Positions 22,901-40,033 of a stretch of DNA of 64,000 nt are shown here, one piece after another; position 1 is the first letter of the stretch, and each line of letters opens with the position of its first letter. The stretch spans positions 25,111 to 89,110 of the forward strand of contig JAXMOL010000031.1 in assembly GCA_034669905.1 (NCBI GenBank), in the 5' to 3' direction. Source of the DNA: Candidatus Hydrogenedentota bacterium (GTDB lineage: Bacteria > Hydrogenedentota > Hydrogenedentia > Hydrogenedentales > JAEUWI01). The notes beneath the pieces were generated by a model. It worked only from the letters and a program-made list of their open reading frames with translations, had not been told where the DNA came from and searched no databases. The position numbers and the translations under genes are program-made.

Positions 22901-23459
22901 TGTGCGTACGAATCTCCCGATCGTCGAATAGCGGCTGGAGGGCCTTCATCGCGGGATTACTCATACTCAGGCGCAGCAGAAGCACCTCACAGATACTTCC
23001 GTCCCGTCGCGGCCACAGGGGAGATGCGCGGTCCAGATAGCCGTCGGAGCTTTCCTGCCCGGTGCAAACGGTATCCGCGGGATAGAGCGCCAGAAACTGC
23101 TGGAGGGGATGTTCGGCCACATCCGGCCCATACTGCTCCAGACTCCAGTATTGGGCATCCCGCAACACGCGGGCATTGACCTCCTCCGTGTATCGGTGAA
23201 TAAGGTATCGCATGGCGGAAAGCAACAACGATGCGCCCATCAGGGTACCCGGTTGCACCGCCAGGGTATCGGGGGCTTCAAAATCCAGATGCTGATTCAC
23301 CTGGTCGGCCACATCACGAAACCCGCGCACGGCCCCTTCCGTTTCCAACCGGGCGGCCAGATCTACAGGCAGCGAAAAACGTTCGCGCGCTTCCGCAGAG
23401 AGGGGAATTCCCAATCCGAAATATTCATTCACCTCATGGGCGCTCAGTATTTCTTCCAT
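19950..23459 (-). CDS. Large alpha-amylase family (GH13) protein
   Basis: DMVPNH, WNDTAQLNY, RFDAAM (nucleophile), LLAEAFW (acid/base), NNPDE; long N- and C-terminal helical extensions. Confidence 0.85.
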   Translation of the reverse strand: MEEILSAHEVNEYFGLGIPLSAEARERFSLPVDLAARLETEGAVRGFRDVADQVNQHLDFEAPDTLAVQPGTLMGASLLLSAMRYLIHRYTEEVNARVLRDAQYWSLEQYGPDVAEHPLQQFLALYPADTVCTGQESSDGYLDRASPLWPRRDGSICEVLLLRLSMSNPAMKALQPLFDDREIRTHSSYLTQVESFHTYLKEQPPFPGTGRDLVTFLYAPIVASPDSLEGQLAHIREVWAPFLPAFLLRQLVVATGVLKEEHQFRGMGPGPARVLRFGRGAGGDGEVLHGQDEPEAFSVDKFWMPNVVLLAKTVYVWLDQLSRQYGQPIHTLDAVPDEELDKLAQWGVSGLWLIGIWERSESSRTIKQMMGNAEAAASAYSLFDYVIAGDLGGVPAYENLARRAWDRGIRLASDMVPNHVGIYSRWVVEHPDWFIQSHESPFPGYTFTGANLSPDDRVSIFIEDGYWEHRDAAVVFKRVDNWSGYTRYIYHGNDGTSMPWNDTAQLNYLIPEVREAVIQTILHVARMFPIIRFDAAMTLAKKHYQRLWFPMPADAGAIPSRAEHGMSRPEFDAVFPVEFWREVVDRVAEEVPDTLLLAEAFWLMEGYFVRTLGMHRVYNSAFMNMLKMEDNQGYRQTIKNVLEFSPEILQRFVNFMNNPDEDTAEAQFGKDDKYFGVAVLMVTMPGLPMIGHGQVEGYTEKYGMEYRRAYYDESPDEGLIQRHEREIFPLMRKRHLFSGSTDFAFFDFVTSDGYVDENVFAYSNRVGDARALVVYQNAHGQTSGRVNWSTARNVGTVDDVSLRQISLGEALDLRFDDNCYYIYRDSRTGLEYLEHGARINREGLYLSLGPYQYVALLDWRAVYDMDLSWGKLHANLAGQGVPSMDDAYQELHLAPLLGPFGEWMDAALLRAIHTQRGALSKVPEFEEKTTQFVAALSKRLAVDVDQAVFVSHIQSDLDAIYAGAAVLKKAKAYPAFRKALSAQFPLEDQEDLAAYRVLLAWAMVRHLGSVLPGDGGEHGVPAHKIAATSGAWIREWFLRKHIAQAFQELGADGEAAALDASLVRICVTHAHHIEALENEIWGPLIHTIFRDSDVEFFLGVNTWQGREWLNPERLTMMLDGVIRSLFVRQLADDALDWERLVLARDAADTLEEAAEGTGYDYGWMLTSVK

Positions 23460-23684
23460 GCAGTCTCTTTCGTTATTTACGTTGCATCCCCCGAAGCTGC
23501 CATCCGCTGAATAGTAACCGATTCCGGACGATGGGCGCTATTTTGTTCACTCTTCCCGAACAGGCTATACTTAGGCACACCACGGGCCGAATGGCACCTC
23601 AAAACGGCTGCTGCCAGCGTTCGCCCCCTGAAATTACCCGATTTGCTTATGTTCGTATTATTCCGTTTGGGAGTTCAAGTTTAC

Positions 23685-24269
23685 ATGTCTGCCGCCGAAT
23701 CCACCAATGCTCCAATCACCGTCGTATCTGGCCTCCCCCGCTCCGGGACGTCTATGATGATGAAAATGCTCGCGGCGGGCGGCATGGACGTGCTCACCGA
23801 CCAGATTCGCACGGCCGACGAAGACAACCCCAAGGGCTACTTCGAATTTGAGCGGGTCAAACAGATCACCACGGACCAGGCCTGGCTACCCGATGCCCAG
23901 GGAAAGGTCGTCAAGATCATTTCCTTCCTGCTGCTGAAGGCCCCCCTGACCTACCACTACAAAGTAATTTTCATGAAGCGGGCCCTGCCCGAAGTCCTGG
24001 CCTCCCAGCAACAAATGCTCCTCCGCCGCGGCGATCACACCCCCCAGGATGACGTGCGCATGGCGGAGCTCTATCAAAAACACCTCGAGGGCGCCTGCCG
24101 CTGGCTCGACGCGCAGCCCCAGATCGACGTCCTCTACGTCGACCACCGCGAGACCGTCGAGTCGCCCTTGACCGTCGCAGAAAAGGTCGCCGCGTTCCTC
24201 GACAACAACATGGATCCCGCCGTGATGGCCGCCGTGGTCGATCGCGGACTCCATCGTCAACGGGCCTGA
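23685..24269 (+). CDS. Sulfotransferase family protein
   Basis: VSGLPRSGTSMMM PAPS-binding loop, DNPKGYFE; GGGAG RBS before ATG 23685. Confidence 0.85.
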   Translation: MSAAESTNAPITVVSGLPRSGTSMMMKMLAAGGMDVLTDQIRTADEDNPKGYFEFERVKQITTDQAWLPDAQGKVVKIISFLLLKAPLTYHYKVIFMKRALPEVLASQQQMLLRRGDHTPQDDVRMAELYQKHLEGACRWLDAQPQIDVLYVDHRETVESPLTVAEKVAAFLDNNMDPAVMAAVVDRGLHRQRA

Positions 24270-24955
24270 TTCAAGCCGCACATCCCTCCCTCACACGCTC
24301 GCCGTAGCGTCTCTCACCAAAGCATCACCACGCCATAACCCCCCTCTAACATCACCGCGCTAGACTTTGGCGCGTAAGGGATTGTTCCCCTACGCAGACA
24401 CGTGGATCGTGCAAAAACCGTTGAAGGCCACGCGCCCGGCGGGTGCACGATTACGACAGCATTTCGCCAAAGGGGCGACTCCATCACGTTCCCTTTCCAA
24501 CAACCCGAGGCCTCAGACCCGTCCGGGCTCCCCCGAAAGAACCGCGAAATAGCGGGTACCTACGGGAAACGGATGGCGTCTAACACGCGCAAAAGGCCTT
24601 CGCTACCGTGTCAATTGCAGACAAGAACGTCAATTCCTGCCATTGGCAGACTTCACACATTGAAGTAAGCTGATAAGCAATATCGTGGGCACCCGCATGA
24701 TGAAACGGCTTCGGTTCATAGCCCTTCAAGGTGCAGGCCCGTCCCCAGAGCTTAGGAAAAGACACCTGAACAATGGAGGAACGCCTATGCCGTGAACACG
24801 ACCAGTCACATGGGCATTTCGTGCCCATCCATGACGGTGAACTACAAAATTGCTCCCATGCAGGGGAGTCTACGGCGCGGGCTACGTGCAGCCTGTGCCT
24901 TCAGTACCATCCCGTTACGATTCCGTAACCTACACTGAACAGAGGGATTTTTACC

Positions 24956-25987
24956 ATGACCACAACTAAAGTAATTTATAGTCGCAAGGGCTTTACACTG
25001 ATAGAGCTCCTGGTTGTTATCGCTATCATCGGCATTCTTGCCGCCATCCTCCTCCCCGCACTGGCGCGCGCACGCGAAGCCGCCCGTCGTGCGAGTTGCC
25101 AGAATAACCTCAAGCAGTGGGGGCTGGTCGTCAAGATGTACGCCAACGAGAGCAGCGGCGAGCGCCTTCCCCGCATGCTGAATCAGGAGTACATTCGTGA
25201 TGACTCCTGCCAGACCCGTCCCGGCCGTCTGCGCGGTGGTATCTGGATGCCCCACGTATACCCTGAGTACATGTCGGACCTCCAACTCATTGTGTGCCCT
25301 TCCGCCGTTAATGCCAGCGAGCTCCCGGACAAGTGGAATTGCCCCGATGGTGCGTACTGCAACCCGTGCGCCACGCACCCCAACTTCGGCGGGCTGGAAG
25401 TGGGTGCAATTGGTAATGCCGAACAGCAAAGCTATATGTACTACGGCTACCTCATCGATGACGACAGCACCTGGGCGGCCTACCGCAATACCATCGCGAC
25501 CTATGTGGCAGACAACACGGCCAACGGAAGCAGCAAAGTGGTCTACACAGACCCCAGCATCCAGGCCGATGCGGAGATCGTGGACGGAATCCTCAACAGT
25601 GATTATGACTACACCGACTCCAGCATCGGGGGTCAGGCTGCAGTACAGGCCATCGTGGACGGCGGCATCGCTGCCAGTGGTGTGAGCACGAGTGTCGTTG
25701 TTTCGGGCTCCGCAGGCGGTGACACCATCCTTCGCCTTCGAGAAGGCATCGAGCGCTTCCTCATCACCGACATCAACAACGCGGCAGCGAGCGCCGAAGG
25801 ACAGAGCACCATCCCGATCATGTGGGACCGCTTCGTCATCAGCGATCAGTCCAAGTACACGGAGCGCTTCAATCACATCCCGGGTGGCGCCAATGTCCTC
25901 TACCTGGACGGGCACGTCAGCTTTCTCAAGTGGCCCCAGGAAGAATTCCCCCTGACTCCCGTGCACGGAATCTTCGGACGTCTCTAA
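24956..25987 (+). CDS. DUF1559 prepilin-type N-terminal cleavage/methylation protein with H-X9-DG motif
   Basis: [44 protein letters not shown]-terminal [33 protein letters not shown] segment. Confidence 0.92.
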
Positions 25988-26003
25988 TCCCATAACGCGT
26001 AAA

Positions 26004-26044
26004 ACGCGTCGGCCGGAACATACGCCGGCCGGCGCGTATTTTTT
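26004..26044 (+). terminator. Rho-independent terminator
   Basis: ACGCGTCGGCCGG...CCGGCCGGCGCGT followed by a T tract. Confidence 0.7.
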
Positions 26045-26209
26045 GGGGGAGGGACGTCACAATAACATCCCGGTTGGGGCCAGAGGCCCCGGCATCTTAA
26101 CTCTCCGAACGAAACAGACAAAGGGAGACCGGGCACGAATCCGCCTCGTTGACTGGGGGCAGCCCTCGCAAGCGCCCACGAAAGCGGCGGTCGAACCAGA
26201 CCGTCCGTC

Positions 26210-26560
26210 TCACCCCGTCGCTTCCGCCTCTTCTTCCACCGGGGCCAGGGTTACCAGAATCTTTGCCCGGTGATGGTGCCCGTCACGACAGCACCCCCGC
26301 GACTTTTCGTGGCTGCAGTGGCAACGGACCTGGGCGATAAAGCCGAAACTGCTTTCCCCGTGGTAATACACCGTGGCCATGGGAAATTGCTTGCAGAAAT
26401 CCTCGATGACGTGGCCGGCATCGTTCGCGGTGCAGATCCGTTCCGTCTGCCGGTCCCGATAGTGCTGTTGCACTACCAACTTCTGGTTAGGGAAATCGGT
26501 GTGGAGTCCGCTCGCAATGTAGGCGGCCGCCTTCCACGATTCACGAAATTTTTCATGCAT
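26210..26560 (-). CDS. Small hypothetical protein with a Cys/His cluster
   Basis: 116 aa from MHEKF with GAGAGGA RBS; contains CHCSHEKSRGCCRDGHHH. Confidence 0.6.
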   Translation of the reverse strand: MHEKFRESWKAAAYIASGLHTDFPNQKLVVQQHYRDRQTERICTANDAGHVIEDFCKQFPMATVYYHGESSFGFIAQVRCHCSHEKSRGCCRDGHHHRAKILVTLAPVEEEAEATG

Positions 26561-26769
26561 GGATCCTCTCCCGCATTCGTTTCGCCCGAACCCGTCATCC
26601 CAAGCCTTGTTTGTTTCTATGATCACCATTGTGACACGAATGTTCCCCCTTTGGCGGCAAAAAACGCCCGAATCACTGCCTTCGTGGCAACATGGAACAC
26701 TGCCGCCGATTCGGGACTGGTTTACTCTTTACGAAGCGCCGGAAAAGGGCCAAAATCGACACGAAAACC

Positions 26770-26799
26770 TTGCACCGCCACGGCCCGCTGGGCTATAGT
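26770..26799 (+). promoter_or_regulatory. Putative promoter of tRNA-Leu
   Basis: TTGCAC-18 nt-TATAGT upstream of the tRNA. Confidence 0.45.
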
Positions 26800-26877
26800 C
26801 TCACGACCTGCTGCCACACAGTCGGCGGACACCACAACGACCGTGACGTCCCCCGCTGAGGCGCGATGGATGCCAAC

Positions 26878-26964
26878 GGGCGAGTGGTGGAATTGGCAGA
26901 CACGACGGACTTAAAATCCGTTTCTCGCAAGAGAGTGCGGGTTCGATTCCCGCCTCGCCCACCA
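26878..26964 (+). tRNA. tRNA-Leu (anticodon TAA)
   Basis: Acceptor stem GGGCGAG/CTCGCCC followed by ACCA, D-loop AATTGGCAGA, anticodon arm ACGGA-CT-TAA-AA-TCCGT, long variable arm, GGTTCGATTCC T-arm. Confidence 0.97.
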
Positions 26965-26972
26965 TACTAAAC

Positions 26973-27008
26973 AAAGGCGATTCTGAGAATACGAGGATCG
27001 CCTTTTTT
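26973..27008 (+). terminator. Terminator after tRNA-Leu
   Basis: AAAGGCGATTCT...AGGATCGCCTTT followed by TTT. Confidence 0.7.
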
Positions 27009-27148
27009 GTTCCATGACCCAACTTAAGCACGCATTAAGCACGGGTGACTCTGATTTCGGTCAGCTCCAAGAGAATTGAAGCGTCGAAAGGCGTGGGGCA
27101 ATCCTTGCAAAAAACAGAATACTGTTTAGTTACGCGCCGAGATACTAT

Positions 27149-27404
27149 GGGAAAACCAAGGGACGGACTACGCATTTTCACCCTTCACCCCCATCGTTTC
27201 TTGGTCTACCTGGCTTCTTCGGACGCATCATCAGGCCCAGTAGTGCTTCAAGCTGGCCACGGAATTATTCCTCGTTCCCATGCTCTGCGGAATATGGTGC
27301 CGAAAGCCCGGCACCACGACTCTGGCCAGTCGGCTCATGGATTCAGCCTATACTGGATGGCAGGATTTCGCACGCTATTCCGTAGTCTGTCCCTTAGTTC
27401 TCCC
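27149..27404 (-). mobile_element. Miniature internally deleted RAYT (REP-associated tyrosine transposase) element, copy 1
   Basis: Terminal inverted repeats GGGAAAACCAAGGGACGGACTACG / CGTAGTCTGTCCCTTAGTTCTCCC. The minus strand encodes a RAYT-like N-terminus (MSRLARVVVPGFRHHIPQ, ATG 27338) and, in another frame, a RAYT-like C-terminus (FRGQLEALLGLMMRPKKPGRPRNDGGEG*). Confidence 0.75.
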
Positions 27405-27452
27405 AAATTAACGATTGAAAGAAGTAACGCTGCACTCGATGCTCTAAACTTC

Positions 27453-27836
27453 CTAAGGTCTCTCGTCCTGACGCCGAAGTCTTCCTGTCGGAGAAAACCC
27501 CATTCGGACTCGCAGTTCACGTTTTAAGATTACTAGTCCTTCACGATTAACTCCGAGTCCATGTTCTATCCGGGCGCGATTTTTCTCAGAGAATGGATAA
27601 CCAATGAGAACACACCCCAATAGTGATATATATTTAATAACAAGGCTGTCAGGCAATTCAATCTGATCTCTCGCATCCTCAACTAAGAATTCACCTAAGG
27701 CTAAACTGAGTTCCTCGGGCCAAACCCCCATAATAGCGTGAAACTCATCTCGAATCATGAGACGTTCGCTCTCTACAAACAGGGCTAACGCGTCCTGGTA
27801 GAGCCTCCATTCTTTTTCGCTGAGTTTCGTCGTCAA
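27453..27836 (-). CDS. Putative immunity protein
   Basis: 127-aa low-GC acidic ORF whose start overlaps the stop of the toxin fragment immediately upstream. Confidence 0.6.
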   Translation of the reverse strand: MTTKLSEKEWRLYQDALALFVESERLMIRDEFHAIMGVWPEELSLALGEFLVEDARDQIELPDSLVIKYISLLGCVLIGYPFSEKNRARIEHGLGVNREGLVILKRELRVRMGFSPTGRLRRQDERP

Positions 27837-28099
27837 AACAGTTCCTCTAGGTACTCTTCGCCAATACTTGGCCTAAACATCGTCCCCATGTCTTGGTGGT
27901 TTGGATCAAAGAGCACGAGAGTGTTGTCATGTCTTCGATAGAAAAACCTTCTACCTTGATCTAAATCTCCAGCGATGTCGTGACCACCGTCTTCCATAAC
28001 GCCTCTCACGTGCTCCATAAAATTTTCACGATTCCCCCAACACGTTTAGAAAAATCCTTTCGATGCTCATTGAATGCATGACCTTTTCCGATACTCTCT
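27833..28099 (-). pseudogene. Orphan polymorphic toxin C-terminal fragment (BECR-like RNase), frameshifted
   Basis: ESIGKGHAFNEHRKDF, then a frameshift near the G5 run (about 28034-28038), then GNRENFMEHV...GRRFFY...TLVLFDP...DMGTMFRP..GEEY. No start codon; begins exactly at the mini-RAYT end. Confidence 0.6.
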
Positions 28100-28235
28100 G
28101 AAAACCAAGGGACGGACTACGCATTTTCACCCTTCACCCCCATCGTTTCCTGGTCTACCTGGCTTCTTCGGACGCATCACCAGGCCCAGTAGTGCTTCAA
28201 GCTGGCCACGGAGAACTCAGGGACAGACTACGAAT
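28100..28235 (-). mobile_element. Partial mini-RAYT, copy 2 (3' half), plus an inverted left-end repeat
   Basis: 28100-28212 is near-identical to 27151-27263, followed by GAGAACTCAGGGACAGACTACG (28211-28232). Confidence 0.75.
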
Positions 28236-28254
28236 AAAAGTTGGCGCACACCTT

Positions 28255-28508
28255 GAAAACCAAGGGACGGACTACGCATTTTCACCCTTCACCCCCATCG
28301 TTTCCTGGTCTACCTGGCTTCTTCGGACGCATCACTAGGCCCAGTAGTGTTTGAAGTTGGCCACGGAATTTTACCTCGTTCCCATGCTCTGCGTAATACG
28401 GTGCGGAAAGCCCGGCACCACGACTCTGGCCAGTCGGCTCATGGATTCAGCCTATACTGGATGGCAGGATTTCGCAAGCTATTCCGTAGTCTGTCCCTTA
28501 GTTCTCCC
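28255..28508 (-). mobile_element. Miniature internally deleted RAYT element, copy 3
   Basis: Near-identical direct repeat of 27151-27404; encodes MSRLARVVVPGFPHRITQ from ATG 28442. Confidence 0.78.
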
Positions 28509-28595
28509 GGAAAGCAACTCCGAAGCAATCAAATCGTCATCTCGCTCTGTAGCATAAAAACTGAATTGTATAGTCATTCGTAGTACCTATATCTA

Positions 28596-29075
28596 TCAGG
28601 ATGGACAGGCTTCATCATCGAATTCCGAAGCTATGTCAGACACTGTTTGAGGATCAGACAGGTCTCTGTGCCACCAGTATCTCGTCGGGTCCGAACATCG
28701 CCCCCGCTGCCTTCTGTTGCCGATACAGAAGAGGCCAAGAAGCAGAAGGTATGATTTCCTTCTTTCGCTTACTGGCAATCCCAGAACATGACGAATTTGC
28801 GCCCTTAACACAGAACTCCCTTTAGGCTCCTTAACAGCGGCCTTAAGCAAGAGCACGCACGGCGTAAATGTTGGTCGCAGCTCGGACCAAGCTATCGCGT
28901 CTTCAACGTCGCAACCCACTACCCCAGACTGGGCGGTTAGATATGCTAGCTCCTGAATTATTGCAGTCTGAGTTTCGTCGTGCTGAGAATCAAACCAATC
29001 AATTGCCTCCGCTTTAGACAGGACACATTGCGCGACTTGATTCAAAGTAATATCTATCATGAGAGTCTTCATCAT
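28596..29075 (-). CDS. DUF5958-like protein, probable orphan immunity protein
   Basis: LNQVAQ, SELRPTFTPCVLL, LP..ERRKS..LL.LF and C-terminal RC...YWWH pattern; low GC; bounded on both sides by RAYT-end repeats. Confidence 0.7.
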   Translation of the reverse strand: MMKTLMIDITLNQVAQCVLSKAEAIDWFDSQHDETQTAIIQELAYLTAQSGVVGCDVEDAIAWSELRPTFTPCVLLLKAAVKEPKGSSVLRAQIRHVLGLPVSERRKSYLLLLGLFCIGNRRQRGRCSDPTRYWWHRDLSDPQTVSDIASEFDDEACPS

Positions 29076-29084
29076 ATCCCTACA

Positions 29085-29106
29085 TGGTCTGTCTCTTTGT
29101 TCTCCC
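29085..29106 (-). repeat. Solo degenerate RAYT left-end repeat
   Basis: Minus strand GGGAGAACAAAGAGACAGACCA versus GGGAGAACTAAGGGACAGACTA of copies 1 and 3; abuts the stop codon of 29107-29487. Confidence 0.7.
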
Positions 29107-29487
29107 TTAATTAACTTCCTTCACAATTCGATACGAATTGGCGCAGATTGTAAGGCTACTATTTGTTGAGTTGGTGCGAATACGGAACTCGTGCAATTGG
29201 TCAAGCGATTCTAACAAATGCTTCCAGACTCCCCGGACCCTTAACAGATGTTCTGAATCCGTCAGACACTCAGCAGCTAATACACTCTCAGGCGCTACAA
29301 TTCCGAAATTCATTCTCGTTTCTAAAAAATAGCAATTCTCGAATACCACGTGATTCTCGCTCCCGTCGGGCCATTCGATGAGCAGTGCTACAGTATCATT
29401 CTTTCCGGGTGAGGACCGGTCAACTTTCAGAGCAAGCAATATTGCATCGTGCCACGGAAGCGCATTGAACGATTCTTTACATTTCAT
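29107..29487 (-). CDS. Putative cognate immunity protein of the Rhs toxin
   Basis: 126 aa, TAATG overlap with the Rhs stop, N-terminal LPWHDA motif, low GC. Confidence 0.7.
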   Translation of the reverse strand: MKCKESFNALPWHDAILLALKVDRSSPGKNDTVALLIEWPDGSENHVVFENCYFLETRMNFGIVAPESVLAAECLTDSEHLLRVRGVWKHLLESLDQLHEFRIRTNSTNSSLTICANSYRIVKEVN

Positions 29488-30803
29488 TATCTGAATCCTG
29501 GGTCTGAATCACTTCGTTTAGGGCTAAAGTGTTCTCTACCTCCGTTCAAGTGATAGTGTGAATACTCTGGTCCACTCTTCCCGGTCGGCGTAGCCGGGTC
29601 TATTCTCAATCTCTCAGCAAACTTTCCATCTACAACTTCCCCGTAGCTACCGGGGCGATACGGATTATCAACATAGCTTTCAGGAATACTATACTTAGCG
29701 TCTGGAAGTAGCGCCACACCTTGAGGTGTAACGTGTATTACATCTGGAACATCTGGCCCCTGCCCGGACCTTGGCGTTCCCGGTCCAGTGCCCGCGCTGC
29801 GACCGCTCGGAAGTATATCGCCAGCTTCGTATGTTCTTCCAGTACCGACGCTCTCGGTCGGCGCTTTGGCAATCACGGGAACTTCGTCAGCGTGCGTCGT
29901 CGCATTGGTGACATTTTCCACCACATCATCACCAATCCGTATGGAATCCGAAATTTCGTCGCCATTCTTCAATGCGGTCCGGCCCGCTTTGGCCACAAAG
30001 TCTCCACCTCGAACAAACTGGCCGGCCCCCGGAATTGCAGAGCCGCCATCGATTAGAGCACCAGTAAAATCTAGCCTCACAACGCTGATCGCGAAGGAGA
30101 GCATGTCCGGAACGATTCCCACGCCTGGCAGCAAACCCGCAGAACCAAGACCCAACTGAAGCCCATCAAGCCAAGCAGCCCAAGATTGATTACCACCACA
30201 AAGCCCAAACGGGTCGACCACACTCCAGGGGTTACTCGCGGCATAGGTGTAGCCATTGCCCAAGTTCGCCGCATCGCCCCAGAGGCCGATGGGGTCGCGG
30301 CTTACGAATCGGCCGAGGGCCGGGTCCATGAAGCGGTTGCGGAAGTAGTAGTAGCCCGATTCCGGATCCCAGCGGCGACCGGTGAAGAGGTAGGGATTTC
30401 CGAATGGGGATTCGGACACCTCCAGCAGGGCACCGGTGGCTTGCCCTGGGTTCGCCGGAGGCGAATAGAACTCGGGCTGGCCGTAGTCGCCGTAATCGTA
30501 GGCCTCCACGACGGTACCCGTGTTGTCGGTGAGCTTGACGACGTTGTGTTGGTCGTCGCCGTGATAATAGTAATCCGACGTGCCCCGGCGCATGGTGAGG
30601 ACTTCGTCGATATAGTTGCCGTAGACATAGCTCGCGGACAGACTGGCACCCCCGCTGCTGGAGATTTCCCATTCCTCCGCCACGCGAGAACCGTCATAGA
30701 CAAAACGCGTGGCCGTGCCATCGGCATGCCGCTTTTCGATACGGCGGCCCAGGGCGTCGTAGGCGTATTCCGTCGTGAAATGGCCGATGTTAACATCGTC
30801 CAC
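29487..30803 (-). CDS. 5'-truncated Rhs protein (core end + pre-toxin + C-terminal toxin with HxH motif)
   Basis: YAYDALGRR, YLFTGRRWDPESGYYYFRNRFMDPALGRFVSRDPIG, YAASNPWSVVDPFGL (core ends at about 30201); GC drops after it; toxin tip RIDPATP...SHYHLNGG..H. Confidence 0.88.
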   Translation of the reverse strand: MDDVNIGHFTTEYAYDALGRRIEKRHADGTATRFVYDGSRVAEEWEISSSGGASLSASYVYGNYIDEVLTMRRGTSDYYYHGDDQHNVVKLTDNTGTVVEAYDYGDYGQPEFYSPPANPGQATGALLEVSESPFGNPYLFTGRRWDPESGYYYFRNRFMDPALGRFVSRDPIGLWGDAANLGNGYTYAASNPWSVVDPFGLCGGNQSWAAWLDGLQLGLGSAGLLPGVGIVPDMLSFAISVVRLDFTGALIDGGSAIPGAGQFVRGGDFVAKAGRTALKNGDEISDSIRIGDDVVENVTNATTHADEVPVIAKAPTESVGTGRTYEAGDILPSGRSAGTGPGTPRSGQGPDVPDVIHVTPQGVALLPDAKYSIPESYVDNPYRPGSYGEVVDGKFAERLRIDPATPTGKSGPEYSHYHLNGGREHFSPKRSDSDPGFR

Positions 30804-31380
30804 ATAACAGTCGCCCGTGGTCTCAAGGATGAGGGGCCAAGGGAGAGCGTCGGTGTCTCCGCATGGTTGGGGTTGCTAAGCCTACGGCCGCCGGGACAGG
30901 AACGCGCGTTGGCGAGCGTTCCCACAGGGACTGCCTTCGCGCTGAAGGGTGCGTCGGGTAGCGAGTGGCCGGGGATGTAACGGCCCGTTCAACGGATGAA
31001 TGGCAATCGTAGATGCGCGAGGCTGTCCCGGCAGTATGGGGAGACGGGATGTTGGGTAGGCTCTCCCCCTTTCTTGGGTCCGGTGCGGTTGTTTTCTCCC
31101 GTGCCCTTTGCCTCGGACAGGTTGAAAACGCGCCGTGGCGGCAGTGTCCAAGCTCCTTGTTCAGGGAGACGCCGGGGAATCGAAGTCATTTTGCCCATCC
31201 CTACCATTATCGCAGACAGGAATGTTTGCGCCCCTGAAGGGTGTCTACTTCTGAGTGCACGTACACGCTGCGGCACGCCGTCGTGTCCACGACCCGGGCC
31301 GAAATCAACAGCAGTTCCCTCCCCCCTATCCCCCATCCGTGAGCTCCGTTCAATCCGTGGTCACCCCTCCGCCCTCCTGC

Positions 31381-31410
31381 TTGACAGGGCGCACGGTCAT
31401 TCTCTAGCAT
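31381..31410 (+). promoter_or_regulatory. Putative sigma70 promoter of the 31541-37088 operon
   Basis: TTGACA-18 nt-TAGCAT. Confidence 0.55.
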
Positions 31411-31540
31411 AGCACAATCGTTTGTGCACTTCGTGTGTAGAAGACCATAGACGTATTGGCAGGATGGGCAGGGCGGCAGGCAGTGTCGTCTCAATCGCCC
31501 CGTTGGGCGCGCGGCCCGTTGCAATGAGGAATCCCATTTC

Positions 31541-32917
31541 ATGAGCTTCTCCCGTTTCTTTTCTTCGGCGTATCGCGGTCTTTTCCCGGTGCTGGTCGCT
31601 GTCGTGGGGACGACGTCCATTTTCCCCGTGGCGAACGCATCCCCGTCAGCCGCCGAGCAGCGCACCAAGCCCCGGGTTATCGTCACCACGGACGGAGAGA
31701 CAGACGACCGGTGTTCCATGAACCGCTTCCTCCTCTACACCAATGAGGTGGAGGTCCTGGGCCTTATCCACTCCAGTTCCAAGCACCATTGGAAGGGAGA
31801 CCGCGAACACGCCCCCAAGAAATGGGAACCGGTGGTCTGGCTGGATGAAATGCTGGACAACTACGCGGCCGTCTACCCCAACCTGCGCCTCCACGAGGAT
31901 GACTACCCCACCCCCGACTACTTGCGCGAACAGGTCTTCGTGGGCAACATCGCCTATGAAGGGGAAATGACCCTGGAAACCCCCGGCTCCAATCGCATTG
32001 TGGAGGTCCTACTCGACGAAAACCCGGCCCCCGTGTGGCTCCAGGCCTGGGGCGGTCCGAACACCATCGCCCGCGCCTTGAAGACCATCGAAGCAAAGCA
32101 TCCGGAAAAAATGGCGGCCGTCGCGAAGAAGGCGCGCATCTTTCTCATCTCCGAGCAGGACAAAACCTACAAATCCTACATTCGCGGTGCGTGGCCCACG
32201 ATTCAAGTGATACGCAGTGGCTATGAATCCTACGGGATCATCGCCTACCGGTGGGACCAACAACAGTCGGCCGAGGTCCAGCCCTATTTCGAGACGGAAT
32301 GGATGGGCACCCACATCACCTCCGGGCATGGTCCCCTCTGCGCGGCCTATGAGACCAGGAAAGGCCGCTTTCGTTCTGAGGGGGACTCCCCCGCCTTTCT
32401 CCATGTCCTTCACACCGGCCTGCGCAGCGAGGAAGATCCGCGTTATGGGGGCTGGGGCGGCCGTTTCGCCTTCAGCAACGGCATGTGGCGCTCGGTGGAC
32501 GAAGCCAACTCGGACCCCCACAGCATTGGCCGCTGGGCCATCGAATTTCAGAATGACTGGGCCGCCCGGGCCGACTGGTGCGTAGCGCCCGTCGAAGAAG
32601 CCAATCACCATCCCGTCATCGCCCTGTCCGGCCCCCTGGACCGGAGCGTCAAGGCGGGTGACGCCATCACGCTCGATGCCCACGGCACGACGGACCCGGA
32701 TGGCAATGGGCTGACCTTCCAATGGTGGCACTACGCGGAAGCCTCGACCTACACCCAAGCCGTTTCCCTGAATACGCCCACGTCGGCCACGACAACCGTC
32801 ACCATACCCGACGACGCCGTCCCGGGCGACACCATCCATATCGTTTGCACCGTGCGCGACGACGGCACGCCTCCCCTTGCCCGTCACGCCCGCCACCTGT
32901 TCACCGTATCCAAGTAA
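31541..32917 (+). CDS. DUF1593 nucleoside-hydrolase-like protein with C-terminal Ig/PKD-like domain
   Basis: RVIVTTDGETDD, RFLLYTNE, AWGGPNT, SEGDSPAF, GGWGGRF, FQNDWAARADW, ANHHP, TDPDGN; signal peptide. Confidence 0.88.
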   Translation: MSFSRFFSSAYRGLFPVLVAVVGTTSIFPVANASPSAAEQRTKPRVIVTTDGETDDRCSMNRFLLYTNEVEVLGLIHSSSKHHWKGDREHAPKKWEPVVWLDEMLDNYAAVYPNLRLHEDDYPTPDYLREQVFVGNIAYEGEMTLETPGSNRIVEVLLDENPAPVWLQAWGGPNTIARALKTIEAKHPEKMAAVAKKARIFLISEQDKTYKSYIRGAWPTIQVIRSGYESYGIIAYRWDQQQSAEVQPYFETEWMGTHITSGHGPLCAAYETRKGRFRSEGDSPAFLHVLHTGLRSEEDPRYGGWGGRFAFSNGMWRSVDEANSDPHSIGRWAIEFQNDWAARADWCVAPVEEANHHPVIALSGPLDRSVKAGDAITLDAHGTTDPDGNGLTFQWWHYAEASTYTQAVSLNTPTSATTTVTIPDDAVPGDTIHIVCTVRDDGTPPLARHARHLFTVSK

Positions 32918-32937
32918 GACCAACCTGAGGAACCCCC

Positions 32938-33960
32938 ATGCTGTCCCTACTTATCGCTGGAATCGCCGGACTGGGCGTCATTGAAAACGCCCCGGAACCC
33001 ATCCCGCCCCTTCCCATCATCTACGACACCGACATGGGCAATGACGTGGACGACGGGTATGCCCTGGGCATGATCCACGCCCTCGCCTCCCGGGGCGAAT
33101 GTGAACTGCTGGCCGTCACCGTCACCAAAGACCACGAGCTGGCCGGACCCTTTGTGGATGTGCTGAACACCTTCTATGGCCACGGCGACATCCCCATCGG
33201 CGTGGTGCGTAACGGTCCCGAACCCCACGAAGGCAAGTTTCTGGGCCTGGCCGCCGAAAAGCAGGGGGACGCCTATCGCTATCCCCACGACCTCCTTTCC
33301 GGTAAGGACGCGCCCGACGCCACCACCCTCCTGCGCAAGACGCTGGCGTCCCAGGCAGACGGCTCCGTGGTCATCGTGCAGGTAGGCTTCTCCACCAATC
33401 TCGCCCGTCTCCTGGATAGCCCGGCAGACGACATCTCTCCCCTCACCGGTCGGGAGCTGGCCGAAAAGAAGGTCAAGGTCATCTCGGTCATGGCCGGTGC
33501 CTTCGAGCCCCACAACGACAAGCCCCATCGAGAATACAATGTGGCCCTCGACGTGCCCGCAGCCCAGCGCCTCACTACCGACTGGCCCACACCCATTATC
33601 TACAGTGGCTTTGAAGTGGGCCTCAAGACCCGCCTGCCCAAGGAGGCCATCATGCACGACTTCGACTACGTGCCCGACCACCCCATGGCCGCAGCCAACC
33701 GCTTGTACAACAACAAATACAATAGCCAGCCCTCCTGGGACCTGACCAGCGTCTTGTGGGCCGTGCGCCCCGACCGGGGATATTTTGGTCTCTCCGAGAA
33801 GGGGCGTGTATCCTACGATGCGCAAGGCTTTACGACCTGGACGCCCGACCCCGAAGGCACCCACCAGTATCTCACGGTGGATGCCCTGCAGGCGGAGCGG
33901 GTGAAAGAAAACATGACGACACTGGCCAGTGAAGCGCCCCACTGCGCAACACAACGATAG
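32938..33960 (+). CDS. Inosine/uridine-preferring nucleoside hydrolase family protein
   Basis: IIYDTDMGNDVDD, VGFSTNLA, MAG, EYNV, SGFEVG, SWDL. Confidence 0.88.
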   Translation: MLSLLIAGIAGLGVIENAPEPIPPLPIIYDTDMGNDVDDGYALGMIHALASRGECELLAVTVTKDHELAGPFVDVLNTFYGHGDIPIGVVRNGPEPHEGKFLGLAAEKQGDAYRYPHDLLSGKDAPDATTLLRKTLASQADGSVVIVQVGFSTNLARLLDSPADDISPLTGRELAEKKVKVISVMAGAFEPHNDKPHREYNVALDVPAAQRLTTDWPTPIIYSGFEVGLKTRLPKEAIMHDFDYVPDHPMAAANRLYNNKYNSQPSWDLTSVLWAVRPDRGYFGLSEKGRVSYDAQGFTTWTPDPEGTHQYLTVDALQAERVKENMTTLASEAPHCATQR

Positions 33961-33971
33961 AGGGAGTCCCC

Positions 33972-36900
33972 ATGAAACGCATTGTATCGATAGCCCCCCT
34001 GCTGGTGCTCGCACTGGCCCCCTTCGCCCAGGGCGAATCCGTCACCCTGCTCGACGATGACTTCAGCAGCTACCCTGCGGGATTATTTTCCTCCACGGTG
34101 GGTGCCCACACGGAATACCACTACCTCCCCGAAGCGGCGGCCAAGGGCAACTGGTCCGTAACCACCTTTCGCTCCAGCATCCCCTCCCAACGGGCCTGGC
34201 GCATTGTGGAGTCCGACGGTGAAGCCGCCATGGGCCAGTTCTACAAGAACAAGTACACCTTCTACCACCCCATGCTCATGTCCGGCGACCGGGCCTGGCA
34301 GGATTACACCGCCACCGTCACCATGACGCCCCAAAGCGACGAGGGGCAACGGGGCCTGGTCTTCCGCTACCGCAACGACCGGTGTTATTACTTTCTTGGG
34401 GTCGACGGGCAGCGCGCGGTGCTGAAACTCGTGCAGCATGCCACCGACTTTCACAAGCCCTACGAAAAAATCCTGGCGGAAGCCCCGCTGGATTGGGCCG
34501 TCGACAAGGCCCTCGAGATTTCCGTGATCGTAACGGGAAATCGCCTCCAGGGCCAGGTAGGCGGTGTCTCCCTCCAGGCAGAAGACGACGTCTTCCCCGA
34601 TGGGCAGATTGCCATTACGGCGGACCAGGCCACCCTCTTTCACGACGTGACGGTGACCTGCGCCCCCGAAGAAGCCCAACGCATCCAGTCGGTTATCGCC
34701 GCACGGGAAGCGGAAGAAGCAGCCCTCCAGGCCAATAACCCCACCATGAAGCGGTGGAAGCGCCTCGACCTGAAAGACTTTGGCGTAGGGCGGAACGCCC
34801 GCTTCGGCGACCTGAATGGTGACGGGCAAATCGATGTGCTCCTCACGCAGGTCTTACACCATGGCCCTAAGGACCGGAACAGCGAAGTGGCCTGCATGAC
34901 GGCCATGACCTTCGACGGTGAAATGCTCTGGCAACTCGGCGAGCCCGACCCCTGGAAAAACCACCTGACCAACGATGTGGCGGTCCAAATCCACGACCTC
35001 GATGGCGATGGGAAGAACGAAGTCATCTACTGCAAAGACATGGTGATCACCGTGGCTGACGGCGCGACGGGCGAAACGAAGTTTTCCGCGCCCACCCCCG
35101 AGATGCCGGCAAACACCAAGGTGCCCTATGACAAGTTCCCCCGCATCCTCGGCGACAGCCTCTTCTTCTGCGACCTCCGGGGCACGGGACGCGATGCCGA
35201 TATCATCATCAAAGACCGCTACCTCAGTGTCTGGGCCCTCAACGACAAACTGGAAGTGATGTGGCATGCCCAGTGCAACACGGGCCACTACCCCTATGCC
35301 TACGACGTCGATGGCGACGGCAAAGACGAAGTCATGATGGGCTACACCCTCTTCGACGATGACGGCACCAAGCTCTGGACCAATGAAGACAAAGTGAAAG
35401 ACCACGCAGACGGCGTCGCCATTGTGCCCTACAAGGTGGGCGAGGCCCCCCGCCTCCTCTGTGCCGCCAGTGACGAGGGTATGTTCTTCGCCGATATGGA
35501 CGGCAAAATCCTCAAGCATCATTACCTCGGCCACGTGCAGAACCCGGCCATCGCGGACTTTCGTCCCGACCTCCCCGGCCTGGAGTCGATCTCCATCAAC
35601 TTCTGGGGCAACCAGGGCATCGTCCATTTCTACGATGCCGAAGGCGATATCTACCACGACTTCGAGCCCGCCCAACACGGCAGCATGTGTCTTCCCGTCA
35701 ACTGGACCGGAAAGCCCGGCGAGTTCTGGATCCTTTCCGCCAACGTCGACGAAGGCGGCGTCTTCGACGGTTGGGGGCGGCGTGTAGTCAGGTTCCCCGC
35801 TGATGGGCATCCCGACATGGCCAACGCCGTGATGGACATCACCGGCGATGCGCGGGAAGAAATCGTGGTGTGGGATGCCTCCGAGATGTGGGTCTACACC
35901 CAGTCCGACAGCCCCCTCCCCTCGGTGGAATTCGTCACCGAGAAGAACCCGCTCTACAACTACTCGAATTACCAGACGACCGTATCGATTCCCGTCTCGG
36001 GCGAAACCGCCCGCTACACGCCCATCAACACGAAACTGTTTCACGACAGTATCTCCCACTGGGAAAAGAAATATGGCCGCGACCGTAACGATGCCCGTTT
36101 CGCCCCCCACGAAATCGTCGCCATTGCCGACAACATCCTCCGCTATCAAAACGAAGACGGCGGATGGCCCAAGGATCTGGACTGGCTCGCAAACATCGAC
36201 GAGGCCACCGTGCGTCAGTTGCGGGGAGAATCGCTGAATCGCAGTACCCTCGATAACCACGGCACCTTTCCGCAGGTGGAATACCTCGCCAAGGCCCATC
36301 ATGCGACGGGGGAAGCCCGCTTCCGTGTGGGTGCCGAAAAAGGCCTGGACTACATCTTCGCCGAACAACGCCCCACCGGCGGCTGGCGCGGTGCCGATGT
36401 GGATGCCATCACTTTCAACGACGACGTCATGACGGGCGTCATGGAATTGCTGCTGGATATCCGGTCGGAGGCCACCCACTTCGCCTGGCTCGATGAGACC
36501 CGACGTGCCCATGCGGCCAAATCCCTCGAAAAGGCCATCGAATGCACCCTGGCCTCTCAGATTGTCGTGGACGGGAAAAAGACCGCGTGGTGCCAACAGC
36601 ACGACCACGAGACCTTCGCCCCCGTAGATGCGCGCAACTATGAGCTGGCTTCTATCAGCTCCCGGGAGAGCGCTGATGTGGTGCGATTCCTCATGTCCCT
36701 GCCGGAACCCGACGCCCGGGTGGAAGAAGCCATCACGGCCGCGGTGGCCTGGTTGGAAGCGTCCCAACTCGCTGGTCTTCGGATTAAGAACGTGCCCATT
36801 GAGCCGGTGCGTTTTGAAAACCATACCACCCGCATCGACCGCGTGCTGGTAACCGACCCGGAAGCCCCACCACTCTGGGCCCGCTTTTACGACATCGACA

Positions 36901-37088
36901 GCAACGAACCCCTCTTCTGTCGGCGAGACGGCACCCGTGTCGCTACCTACGACGAAGTGGAACTGGAACGGCGCACCGGCTACGCCTGGTATGGCGACTG
37001 GCCCGACGACCTGCTCAACCGCGACTTCCCCGCATGGCAGGCCCGGCACGCCCACAAAGGGGCATCGGAACATTTCGCGTCCCGCTGA
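33972..37088 (+). CDS. Secreted fusion: ConA-like domain + FG-GAP/rhamnogalacturonan lyase (PL11-like) propeller + pectate lyase PL10 (PelA)
   Basis: GDLNGDG, DLDGDGKNE, DVDGDGKDE repeats, TGHYP, DHADG, GHVQ; C-terminal Q-EDGGWPK, STLDN, AITFND, WCQQHD, RNYE, WARFY, ERRTGYAWYG. Confidence 0.82.
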   Translation: MKRIVSIAPLLVLALAPFAQGESVTLLDDDFSSYPAGLFSSTVGAHTEYHYLPEAAAKGNWSVTTFRSSIPSQRAWRIVESDGEAAMGQFYKNKYTFYHPMLMSGDRAWQDYTATVTMTPQSDEGQRGLVFRYRNDRCYYFLGVDGQRAVLKLVQHATDFHKPYEKILAEAPLDWAVDKALEISVIVTGNRLQGQVGGVSLQAEDDVFPDGQIAITADQATLFHDVTVTCAPEEAQRIQSVIAAREAEEAALQANNPTMKRWKRLDLKDFGVGRNARFGDLNGDGQIDVLLTQVLHHGPKDRNSEVACMTAMTFDGEMLWQLGEPDPWKNHLTNDVAVQIHDLDGDGKNEVIYCKDMVITVADGATGETKFSAPTPEMPANTKVPYDKFPRILGDSLFFCDLRGTGRDADIIIKDRYLSVWALNDKLEVMWHAQCNTGHYPYAYDVDGDGKDEVMMGYTLFDDDGTKLWTNEDKVKDHADGVAIVPYKVGEAPRLLCAASDEGMFFADMDGKILKHHYLGHVQNPAIADFRPDLPGLESISINFWGNQGIVHFYDAEGDIYHDFEPAQHGSMCLPVNWTGKPGEFWILSANVDEGGVFDGWGRRVVRFPADGHPDMANAVMDITGDAREEIVVWDASEMWVYTQSDSPLPSVEFVTEKNPLYNYSNYQTTVSIPVSGETARYTPINTKLFHDSISHWEKKYGRDRNDARFAPHEIVAIADNILRYQNEDGGWPKDLDWLANIDEATVRQLRGESLNRSTLDNHGTFPQVEYLAKAHHATGEARFRVGAEKGLDYIFAEQRPTGGWRGADVDAITFNDDVMTGVMELLLDIRSEATHFAWLDETRRAHAAKSLEKAIECTLASQIVVDGKKTAWCQQHDHETFAPVDARNYELASISSRESADVVRFLMSLPEPDARVEEAITAAVAWLEASQLAGLRIKNVPIEPVRFENHTTRIDRVLVTDPEAPPLWARFYDIDSNEPLFCRRDGTRVATYDEVELERRTGYAWYGDWPDDLLNRDFPAWQARHAHKGASEHFASR

Positions 37089-37123
37089 GGCGGACGCGGC
37101 ATAGAAAACAGTTTCAAATAGGA

Positions 37124-37167
37124 AGGGCGACCCCGGTCCACACGGACCCGGGTCGCCCCTATTTTTT
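37124..37167 (+). terminator. Rho-independent terminator
   Basis: GGGCGACCC-CGGTCC...GGACC-CGGGTCGCCC hairpin followed by ATTTTTT. Confidence 0.75.
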
Positions 37168-37338
37168 GGGCGCGCGGACAATTAAAGGGGGAAGGCGAGT
37201 CACGGCGGGTATATCGTGCCACCCGATCCCACGCGACCGCTGGTCGTGTCGTAGATTCGCCGCAGGAGAATTCGGGTGCCTTGAGCCTTATCGAACACGT
37301 ATTTCGTGGATGACGATACCGTGGCCTTTTAAGGTCAT

Positions 37339-37536
37339 CGTGCCACGCGATGGCGAGCCCTGCGAGCTTTCGTGTGCATGGAGTACGATTGACGAAGAGC
37401 CAGACTGGAAAACGCTATTCGGGCGTCCGCCTATCCCCCTGGAACGAGACGCCCTCGCTCAACGTGTGTGTTAAGGATAAGTTCACTTCTCCTCCACGCA
37501 CACGAAACCTCGTTTTACTCGGCATCGCGTGGCACG
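37339..37536. repeat. Long imperfect hairpin, copy 2 of the CGTGCCRCGCGAT family
   Basis: CGTGCCACGCGATG/CATCGCGTGGCACG termini; inner TTTCGTGTGCATGGAG/CTCCACGCACACGAAA. Confidence 0.75.
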
Positions 37537-37602
37537 GGATCAGATCCCACTGATCGAAACAGACGTTACAATCCATAGTGGGCTTCAGCGCCCCCACTCC
37601 CG

Positions 37603-38640: not shown

Positions 38641-38733
38641 GCTGATTCCCTTTTAAATGCGGCTTGTTGGTCGAAGGCGTATACTAGCCCAGACGGCCAC
38701 CCCACGCAAAACCGGACGCCCAAGGAACCTCTT

Positions 38734-39894: not shown

Positions 39895-40033
39895 CCCGCG
39901 CCCCTTCCGCCCTCACTGCCTTTCCCGCCTAATGAAAACGTCCCAGATTGGCAAACACCGGCAGAGCCGGGGGTATGTGGAAAAACCCTGAAAAGGGGCC
40001 GAATCATCAAACTCGTGTACGGCGCCAAAGCAG

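Follow-up and report, generated by a model that had tools for sequence, protein, structure and literature searches.

Terminal inverted repeats of a TIRYT transposase as probable joining points in an orphan Rhs toxin and immunity array

The array of truncated toxin genes and predicted immunity genes at 27149–30835 of the window (the whole stretch of 64,000 nucleotides analysed here) is punctuated by terminal inverted repeats (TIRs) that belong to a TIRYT/TIRtron, an element of a Y1-HUH transposase class that has no REP hairpins. The 254-bp minis within it are internally deleted copies of the TIRYT element, and the cargo comprises an Rhs remnant, a polymorphic-toxin tip verified by homology and predicted immunity genes. 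But how did transposase ends come to border fragments of toxin genes? Judged from sequence comparison, the TIRYT enzyme probably nicks one strand 7–8 bases outside the AGGGACAGAC core and joins this end to other DNA ends, remodelling the neighbouring toxin and immunity genes. New here are a fixed junction with differing cargo in a congener, stutters on the outer side and an Rhs association on separate TIRYT branches. The features are as follows.

26878..26964, plus strand: tRNA-Leu(TAA), given for context, with the array about 190 bp further downstream
27151..27404, minus strand: mini-TIRtron 1, left TIR core at 27394 and right TIR core at 27159
27453..27836, minus strand: 127-aa predicted immunity gene, role by position only
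27833..28101, minus strand: polymorphic-toxin C-terminal domain, 5'-truncated at a TIR outer end and frameshifted
28100..28212, minus strand: right half of a mini, right TIR core at 28108, other side joined to the outer end of the solo TIR
28211..28254, plus strand: solo left-type TIR, inverted, core at 28219, inner side cut by the outer end of mini 2
28255..28508, minus strand: mini-TIRtron 2, cores at 28498 and 28263
28596..29075, minus strand: DUF5958 gene, 159 aa (Pfam PF19383, E 9.6e-27)
29085..29104, minus strand: degenerate solo TIR, core at 29096, outer end 3–4 nt after the stop of the upstream gene
29107..29487, minus strand: 126-aa gene that follows immediately on the stop codon of the toxin, predicted to encode the cognate immunity protein of the Rhs tip
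29487..30835, minus strand: 5'-truncated Rhs remnant with the end of the core, a DPxGL motif and a toxin tip (TIGR03696, E 6e-17)
30834..31060, no strand assigned: dispersed repeat of a family other than the TIR, abutting the Rhs truncation point

A preliminary description of this DNA had counted seven copies of GGGAC(A/G)GAC. Six are exact (27160, 28109, 28220 and 28264 on the plus strand, 27385 and 28489 on the minus strand), and the seventh, at 29085–29103 with its core at 29096, is degenerate. This 9-mer is not distinctive by itself, with 142 matches in the genome; the 13-mer AGGGACRGACTAC is, with 13 matches against none for a reversed control. The two full minis, the half mini at about 28100–28212 and the inverted end (sequence match 28210–28232) are all where the description had placed them. 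Minis 1 and 2, of 254 bp each, are 95% identical (12 differences), lie in unlike flanks and both retain Y1 transposase codons, those for the N terminus and those for the C terminus. Mini 1 reads left TIR, first TIRYT codons, a hairpin-repeat remnant, last codons and right TIR, so that the catalytic core is replaced by the remnant of another hairpin repeat; its TIRs pair into a terminal stem (z −3.1). A TTG-N17-TATAGG-like sequence was seen, by eye only, ahead of the remnant gene. The mini is present at three chromosomal sites in two species, which implies movement without an enzyme of its own. Action in trans, as proposed earlier, is supported to this extent; a dedicated integron-like system is not, given the arbitrary cargo ends and the two orientations.

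Which enzyme acts on these ends? In the window only the ends of the TIRYT gene remain, and the cognate gene is broken in the window's 95.7%-complete assembly. The full-length gene with these ends that the preliminary description had called for exists in the congener G005, where an intact gene of 229 aa (protein P0001; Pfam Y1_Tnp PF01797, E 8.4e-13; HIH and YVEMNP motifs) lies between the same TIRs. The HuH and YxxxNP motifs are kept in 131 of 140 relatives. TIRs flank the gene on both sides at G005:C23, G005:C429 and G000:C11, and a GGGGWSAS-like motif was found on both sides at 69 of the 122 loci with enough flank, on one side at 34 and on neither at 19. The TIR core here, AGGGACAG, has one mismatch to the GGGGWSAS consensus; exact GGGGACAG is present in L097, L184 and L191, TIR dimers occur in G118 and G104, and the 13-mer is found in 60 of 135 genomes of the phylum, in up to 34 copies. 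The earlier label of RAYT thus held for Y1/HUH element ends and not for the enzyme, which is a TIRYT and not REP-cutting. A REP-type RAYT is ruled out, the ends being long-range TIRs and not GTAG/GTGG-footed REP hairpins. Two pieces of the broken C11 copy, scored as pieces only, reach 34 and 24.5 bits with the RAYT model NF047646, whose cut-off is 80. The enzyme probably belongs to TnpA-Y1 subclass 2.1, on the basis of the TIR association and of the statement on TIRYTs by Quentin et al. 2018 (PMC6006769).

Where do the ends join? Genome G000 and its congener G007 share three loci with four anchored TIRs (C3/C647 twice, C29/C2 and C2/C8), each near-identical inside and losing similarity 7–8 nt outside the core, with different cargo beyond; the differences between these congeners thus break at the repeats, as had been predicted, and do so to the base. 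At C3/C647 the cargo measures 5.5 kb against 0.8 kb, shares no DNA and reads in opposite directions. As the comparison is limited to these two congeners, two of the three loci might also reflect deletion from an ancestral array that was larger. Left and right TIRs (37 pairs) are complementary at 0.57–0.84 for 8 nt outside the core and at 0.16–0.32 after that. Tandem stutters at the outer junction position accompany 26 of 104 TIRs, with none on the inner side and two displaced, and a stutter is seen at 27 of 108 sites against 0.76 for the swapped control. Among 17 flanks with a TIR-free homolog, homology begins at positions 7–9 in seven and at position 20, after an 11-nt stutter, in two more; in 8/17 the start lies elsewhere or is accounted for by a stutter or another repeat. 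The cargo breaks off at arbitrary positions within genes. Some cargo joins the inner side of a solo TIR (the DUF5958 gene here, L209 and L274), and other repeat families also lie at toxin truncation points (window 30834, C24:98535 and G007:C635), which means that TIRs are not the sole junction makers; the control with other repeats missed one toxin-truncation end of that kind.

The cargo has the layout of an orphan Rhs array, with a truncated core and DPxG motif, a tip, a small gene downstream and further tips. All cargo ORFs lie on the minus strand, as first described, at a GC content of 0.45–0.54 against 0.59 for the genome. The domain matches agree with the genes named at the outset, a truncated Rhs (TIGR03696) and DUF5958 (Pfam E about 1e-26), and the second toxin fragment does begin at a repeat end, at about 28101. 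The claim that every module is bounded by the same repeat fails twice: the Rhs remnant begins, at 30834, against the non-TIR dispersed repeat, and the DUF5958 gene lies inward of the seventh repeat. The two parts of that dispersed repeat form 16 and 13 clusters in the genome, and its G007 copies stop at the same base. Three paralogous Rhs remnants on contig C24 begin near the same point as the remnant in the window; the tyrosine integrase beside the C24 array belongs to an integrative element. The Rhs tip resembles toxin C-termini in an atlas, a lead only. The 126-aa gene after it stops 3–4 nt from the seventh repeat, the abutment noted earlier, and has 39 homologs of 120–139 aa, hypothetical wherever named. 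In the fragment at 27833..28101 both the Rhs core and HINT are gone from the front, together with part of the toxin domain itself. A word search gave no longer homologs of this tip; HMMER did, with 41 matches that include the C-termini of Rhs-HINT, TPS/CdiA-type and portal-fusion proteins. The 127-aa gene has no Pfam or NCBIfam match and no homolog besides itself; weak look-alikes appear in the atlas. Immunity roles are assigned by position, with a named family for one of three genes, and DUF5958 is a putative orphan immunity gene from its context. On the tRNA side, similarity to the tRNA-Leu site in G007 and G004 ends at 27014–27045; only that side is common, and the window's array was not found at the corresponding site of either genome. 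As an attachment site for an integrase island the tRNA-Leu was rejected, as a search of the genome found no duplicated tRNA 3' end.

Under the favoured explanation, the TIRYT would act by one-ended strand transfer, so that toxin and immunity genes beside its ends are trimmed, duplicated and at times replaced, with the immunity genes retained. On the strand that enters the element, the enzyme would presumably form a 5'-phosphotyrosine. A stutter would result when the flank's 3'-OH is extended a little before the ends are joined again, and joining to a more distant or incoming 3'-OH would produce an adjacent deletion, a duplication or a capture; the other end of the captured or rearranged DNA would be closed by a second TIR or through Rhs-core homology. 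A nick, extend and rejoin amplification model has been proposed for TnpA-REP (PMC3333891), and it fits the stutters. A TIRYT that was then intact, and is broken in the window's assembly, would have mobilised the minis or copied them in trans. Selection may then retain immunity genes while toxin genes are cut down, leaving a polyimmunity-like array. TIRYT activity would be general, with toxin arrays a favoured and not the sole substrate.

Do the modules instead form a domesticated cassette system, maintained to collect toxin tips and immunity genes, in which the DNA between the outer ends of two TIRs leaves as a circle and enters again at a different TIR? This we consider unlikely, although several observations speak for it. 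Cargo is swapped at fixed anchors, once in opposite orientation, and six full or near-full minis (two in the window and three in G007 among them) and a half copy all lie in toxin/immunity arrays. At G005:C23 and C429 an intact element is followed by a fragment, an immunity-like gene and a solo TIR; in G118, by inspection, toxin-antitoxin-like modules are bracketed by TIR doublets. In one run contig the alleles of mini 2 continue into the flank of mini 1, which a circle, a duplication or a chimera could each explain. However, no two sites were found to share an identical two-ended cassette, cargo begins inside genes, with the tip in the window short of part of its domain, the promoter scan gave no consensus promoter in the minis (4 matches in the region against 2.9 expected), and the run contigs, from one study, show no joints at TIRs. 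How specific is the link to toxin loci? The enrichment that the preliminary description foresaw appears in the window's genome, where 2 of the 5 other TIR clusters lie at Rhs loci but 1 of 104 clusters of other repeats does (P 0.005), and in 15 other genomes, where TIRs accompany 4 of the 38 Rhs loci and no more than 0.76 would be expected (P 0.007). Outside the genus, TIR clusters lie at Rhs loci in 4 of 133 cases and elsewhere in 129. The neighbours of close-relative elements are mostly housekeeping or other accessory genes (83 proteins were scanned). An Rhs core is contained in 9 of 158 TIRYT loci, on separate branches of what is a quick tree, and in 4 of those 9 the core fragment begins at a TIR outer end.

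The broad spread of neighbours agrees with a plainer reading, in which selfish TIRtrons and their MITE-like derivatives insert in low-constraint islands, homologous or homology-facilitated recombination accounts for the Rhs array, and later ordinary deletion has eroded the insertion points that now form the junctions. Elements do adjoin rpoB, mnmG and other core genes. Six congeners without the exact 13-mer hold 37 of the 45 Rhs cores of the genus, many of them orphan fragments, at whose 5' boundaries no shared repeat was found in a weak comparison limited to G000 repeats; an InlB-repeat fragment array on G000:C18 is TIR-free, and orphan modules disrupted by IS are known (PMC3150448). Yet plain insertion should leave the other half of the target gene beyond the element, and it is absent at L090, L160, L176, L229 and C3. 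Random deletion would not repeatedly end 7–8 nt outside the core or yield stutters on the outer side only, and the genome's other repeat families lie far less often at Rhs loci. This reading is quite improbable. That the assembly of this metagenome-derived genome produced the repetition as an artefact is hardly credible: the assembly is from short reads and no listed contig of four runs covers the entire array, but the two minis disagree at 12 of 254 positions, each with flanks of its own, contigs of the four runs (one study, possibly the source) bridge 27404, 28212 and 29096 and extend about 30 letters into the repeats at the other junctions, and the same mini and layout recur in G007 at 79–86% identity.

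The literature found shows no function or substrate for TIRYTs, and the searches returned neither TIRYT biochemistry nor a link between TIRYT/RAYT and toxin arrays. The locus predicts the cut site to the base and includes a natural non-autonomous substrate, and a congener supplies an intact enzyme gene together with its cognate ends. Should the enzyme prove able to attach its end to any DNA, gene capture would have a new chemistry; were its activity confined to insertion and deletion, it would still explain the recurrent conversion of a toxin locus into an immunity store. A wider proposal, which we would sooner doubt than believe, sees TIRYTs as a widespread group of end-joining HUH enzymes. 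By ligating a fixed 5' end of the TIR to foreign DNA ends they would assemble integron-like arrays with no integrase involved, and in several bacterial phyla they would provide the non-homologous step that is missing from accounts of Rhs tip displacement and of how orphan immunity genes are gathered.

How does the locus compare with known systems? The TIRtron/TIRYT of Di Nocera et al. 2013 (PMC3733652) has the same plan, a YxxxNP Y1-HUH gene between GGGGWSAS-like TIRs, with solo, dimeric and clustered TIRs elsewhere. Most TIRYTs fall in subclass 2.1 of TnpA-Y1 (PMC6006769), which includes RAYT group 1 (Bertels et al. 2017, PMC5581495), is the second largest, is present in 14.9% of strains and is reported without REP hairpins, as here. 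The core here differs in usually beginning with AGGG, not GGGG. The available text of these papers contains no cargo, toxin or Rhs link, junction position or stutter (no occurrence of 'toxin' or 'rhs' in PMC3733652 or of 'rhs' in PMC6006769). The REPtron/TnpA-REP of E. coli (Ton-Hoang et al. 2012, PMC3333891) is of the same catalytic class and acts by 5'-phosphotyrosine cleavage and strand transfer, on GTAG-footed hairpins, and is reported to be immobile as a unit. Here, in contrast, the inverted ends are long-range, whole elements occupy several loci of one genome and flanking genes are rearranged.

Integrons consist of IntI, attI and attC cassettes. They share with the present locus repeat-punctuated accessory modules and cargo turnover at fixed sites, but IntI, attC hairpins, uniform orientation and whole-gene cassettes are missing here. 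By inspection, no integrase ORF lies among the ORFs of 20000–40000, the associated enzyme being HUH, and no attC-like circular cassette was seen, with repeats in both orientations and cargo starting inside genes. This is not a dedicated integron. The rAID-1 (bioRxiv 10.1101/471110) and XerC/D-linked polyimmunity loci (PMC3482391) likewise combine low-GC co-oriented immunity genes, a repeated intergenic motif and an adjoining recombinase gene. Theirs is a XerD-family tyrosine recombinase with whole immunity genes, whereas here the enzyme is an HUH nuclease, the inverted ends occur in both orientations, gene fragments are included and the window locus has no XerD-like gene. Closest in cargo are the orphan Rhs/CDI arrays and T6SS displacement arrays (PMC3150448, PMC5361080), with co-oriented truncated tips and downstream immunity genes, which are put down to homologous or homology-facilitated illegitimate recombination; for their non-homologous junctions a rare form of the latter is invoked, with the remark that no integrase has been demonstrated (PMC5361080). 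In the array described here, by contrast, tips begin at a fixed transposase-end position, and one of them does so without any core homology.

The array extends from a tRNA-Leu gene to position 30835 of the window, which is C31:25111-89110 in a 7.44-Mb source assembly (G000; 59% GC, 95.7% complete). Between these points lie two 254-bp direct repeats that are 95% identical (mini 1, 27151-27404; mini 2, 28255-28508), a half copy (~28100-28212) and an inverted solo end starting at 28211. The features are as follows.

Features of the array (coordinates where given, strand, description)
26878-26964, tRNA-Leu(TAA)
minus strand, Rhs remnant with a TIGR03696 match
minus strand, 126-aa gene with 39 homologs, hypothetical where named
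minus strand, DUF5958 gene among the array cargo
from ~28101, minus strand, frameshifted toxin tip
minus strand, 127-aa gene for which no homologs were found

The preliminary description counted seven GGGAC(A/G)GAC cores; six are exact, but the seventh, at 29096, is degenerate. This 9-mer occurs 142 times in the genome, and the longer 13-mer AGGGACRGACTAC 13 times vs 0 for its reversed control. The toxin tip has 41 matches, among them C-termini of Rhs-HINT, TPS-type and portal-fusion proteins; its first residues, HINT and core are all missing. The sequence following the tRNA gene (26965-27060) resembles (~74%) the one that follows tRNA-Leu(CAA) on contig C53, terminator-like hairpin included.

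What are the repeats? Both minis retain the initial and final codons of a Y1 transposase gene, between which the end of a different hairpin repeat stands in place of the middle. A parent gene with the same ends is located at G000:C11:135612-136453, where an inserted hairpin breaks it, with a stop after 119 codons; four other full-length Y1 paralogs in the assembly are 45-54% identical and have different flanking repeats. The intact enzyme sought by the preliminary description was found in a congener, G005, which has two copies between the same repeats, 91-93% identical to the C11 piece, and whose 229-aa protein matches Pfam Y1_Tnp and contains HIH and YVEMNP. Y1 genes flanked by terminal inverted repeats (TIRs) with a GGGGWSAS motif are called TIRtrons or TIRYTs in the accessible text of PMC3733652, and most TIRYTs fall in subclass 2.1, without REP hairpins, according to the portion available of PMC6006769; our literature search met the term 'TIRYT' in these two papers only. 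The feature in the window is real and is a TIRtron derivative. In the phylum, 60 of 135 genomes contain the 13-mer. Since the same internally deleted mini recurs at two further loci in the congener G007 (79-86% identity), it has been moved or copied with no enzyme of its own. Hairpin repeats containing the TIR core are inserted mid-gene in TIRYTs of several lineages (L001:9990-10070, which is G000:C11; L040, L096, L098, L099), breaking the gene in G000 and in the congener G004. Another genome, G021, has a second mini-TIRtron family (L041, L043; core GGGACAGTCACC, ~230-260 bp) dispersed next to ordinary and PIN-domain genes, not toxins.

Where does the element end? Across 37 pairs, left/right TIR complementarity persists 8 nt outside the core and then drops to background. 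At the three TIR-bearing loci common to G000 and G007 (C3/C647 at both ends, C29/C2 and C2/C8), the sequences match almost perfectly within the TIR and part 7-8 nt beyond its core, so species differences do break at the repeats, to the base, as had been proposed; two more pairs (C3 right TIR, C29 solo) show greater divergence or are not clearly orthologous. Seventeen of 151 distinct TIR sites have an outer flank homologous to TIR-free DNA; the homology starts at positions 7-9 in seven, at position 20 after an 11-nt stutter (a tandem re-duplication of the TIR outer end) in two and elsewhere in eight, in several cases owing to other repeats. Stutters occur in 27 of 108 sites vs a swapped-control mean of 0.76, and in a stricter set 26 of 104 sites have them at the outer end, none at the inner end and two displaced, sites of related genomes not being independent; the extra units of the stricter set extend into the core by 0-11 nt. 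At L009, L089, L175, L176 and L094, as many as about six stuttered outer ends follow one another in telomere-like runs. At L072:1-171 and 2410-2580 (G007:C8), the DNA beyond a TIR repeats part of a nearby valS-like gene in inverted orientation (98% identity), beginning 9 nt from the core; the TIR may have mediated a duplication here, or the assembly may have made a join.

How closely are these ends tied to toxins? In G000, three of four Rhs loci have a TIR no more than 3 kb away, one being the window itself, and two of five TIR clusters sit at Rhs loci, vs 1 of 104 for six other repeat families taken together (P 0.005; self-query clusters removed, the repeat control having missed one repeat end seen at C24). 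The remaining three strict TIR clusters (C11, C29, C91) are flanked by gene fragments, then secreted or HEAT-repeat proteins, and are toxin/immunity-like by layout only. Among 67 hand-chosen TIR neighbours in G005 and G007 are SMI1/KNR4, WHH nuclease, PT-HINT, Tox-URI2 and InlB-repeat fragments, and also HicA, Fic, a glycosyltransferase and a transporter. An Rhs core is present in 9 of 158 TIRYT loci from public genomes and metagenomes (8 of 114 clusters; 8 changes on a quick tree), and four of the nine (L090, L160, L176, L229) have a core fragment that begins at the outer end. Rhs density at TIRYT loci is ~7 per Mb; the figure for nine congeners, which as other taxa provide only a rough background, is 0.7 per Mb. 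Several findings speak against specificity. In 15 TIR-rich genomes outside the genus, selected for high TIR counts, a TIR lies near 4 of 38 Rhs loci (P 0.007; expectation no higher than 0.76), yet of 133 TIR clusters just 4 sit at an Rhs locus. Within the close clade, the majority of named neighbours (83 neighbours scanned) are housekeeping or other accessory genes. Of the 45 Rhs cores in the genus, 37 belong to six congeners that lack an exact 13-mer; one of these congeners, G004, has a variant TIR next to a core fragment. Cargo is joined on the inner side of a solo TIR in some loci (L209, L274). At L284:3900-6170 (G118:C367, another genome of the phylum), head-to-head TIR doublets flank a toxin-antitoxin-like pair and a HigA-like plus Mrr-like module (named by inspection), a clean, cassette-like layout with defence-type cargo.

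Other repeats also meet toxin genes. Three other dispersed hairpin/repeat families end exactly at toxin truncation points (window 30834-31060; G000:C24:98535; L073:6824 in G007:C635), and two of them also flank other Y1 paralogs. In G007, one other-family repeat adjoins a Tox-URI2 tip at the HINT cleavage site; G000:C19 has the fusion intact. All Rhs remnants of the window's family start at nearly the same core point (window 30823; G000:C24:98535, 100655 and 103739; L069:2620; protein P0002) with differing upstream DNA, and no full-length parent of this family was found in the G000 assembly. The Rhs orphan array at G000:C24:97700-106883 (L003), with Imm42 and SUKH immunity genes, directly adjoins a tyrosine integrase, an AlpA-like gene and a primase-polymerase, and the locus resembles a satellite-type integrative element. 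The congener G003 has 16 Rhs cores, mostly short frames, at about eleven separate loci on several contigs, with no exact TIR of the window family.

What process could have left these marks? Probably, the TIRYT nicks at -7/-8 and attaches its TIR end to other 3'-OH ends; the products would be stutters, deletions next to the TIR, duplications of local DNA and, now and then, captured DNA. In toxin islands, selection would retain the immunity genes. Re-joining of a 5'-phosphotyrosine TIR end to an extended 3'-OH would yield a stutter with a fixed start and a variable end; an amplification model with the same kind of re-joining exists for TnpA-REP (PMC3333891, accessible part). On this reading, the window records several joining events of this kind: at 28101 the tip was truncated, the half mini became fused to the solo TIR, and mini 2 cut into that TIR. 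The cognate TIRYT gene is now broken in the G000 assembly. A dedicated two-ended cassette system is, in our view, an unlikely alternative. As to the first description itself, all cargo modules are indeed co-oriented on the minus strand and the toxin fragment does begin (~28101) at the outer end of a repeat, as it stated; against its claim that the same repeat bounds every module, the Rhs remnant's 5' end adjoins a different repeat family, and DUF5958 sits on the inner side of the seventh repeat. Passive insertion into arrays that recombination built appears quite unlikely. The available text of PMC5361080 explains orphan arrays by recombination, either homologous or illegitimate and facilitated by homology, and shows no integrase. 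The C3/C647 cargo between two anchors (5.5 kb vs 0.8 kb) has no DNA in common and opposite reading directions, which is hard to derive by deletion from one ancestral array. An assembly artefact is highly improbable, junctions 27404, 28212 and 29096 being spanned by contigs from four sequencing runs, which are not independent as their single study is possibly the source of the assembly. No joint at a repeat was found in the assembled contigs of these runs; one run contig has mini-2 alleles running into the flank of mini 1 (agreement at nine listed differences) and could come from a circle, a duplication or a chimeric assembly.

How does this compare with known systems? From the parts of these papers available, IS-disrupted orphans are reported (PMC3150448), XerC/D lies next to polyimmunity loci with no HUH mention found (PMC3482391), and RAYT group 1 is among the most IS-like RAYT groups with no toxin link found (PMC5581495). 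A search of main texts, covering few subscription journals, found no literature linking TIRYT/RAYT ends to toxin-immunity arrays. The proposed likeness to integrons holds in part: the array works partly like one but lacks features of integron membership, and the same is true for rAID-1 as presented in the accessible portion of bioRxiv 10.1101/471110. The TIRYT element is known but unstudied, and the behaviour seen here is new and testable.
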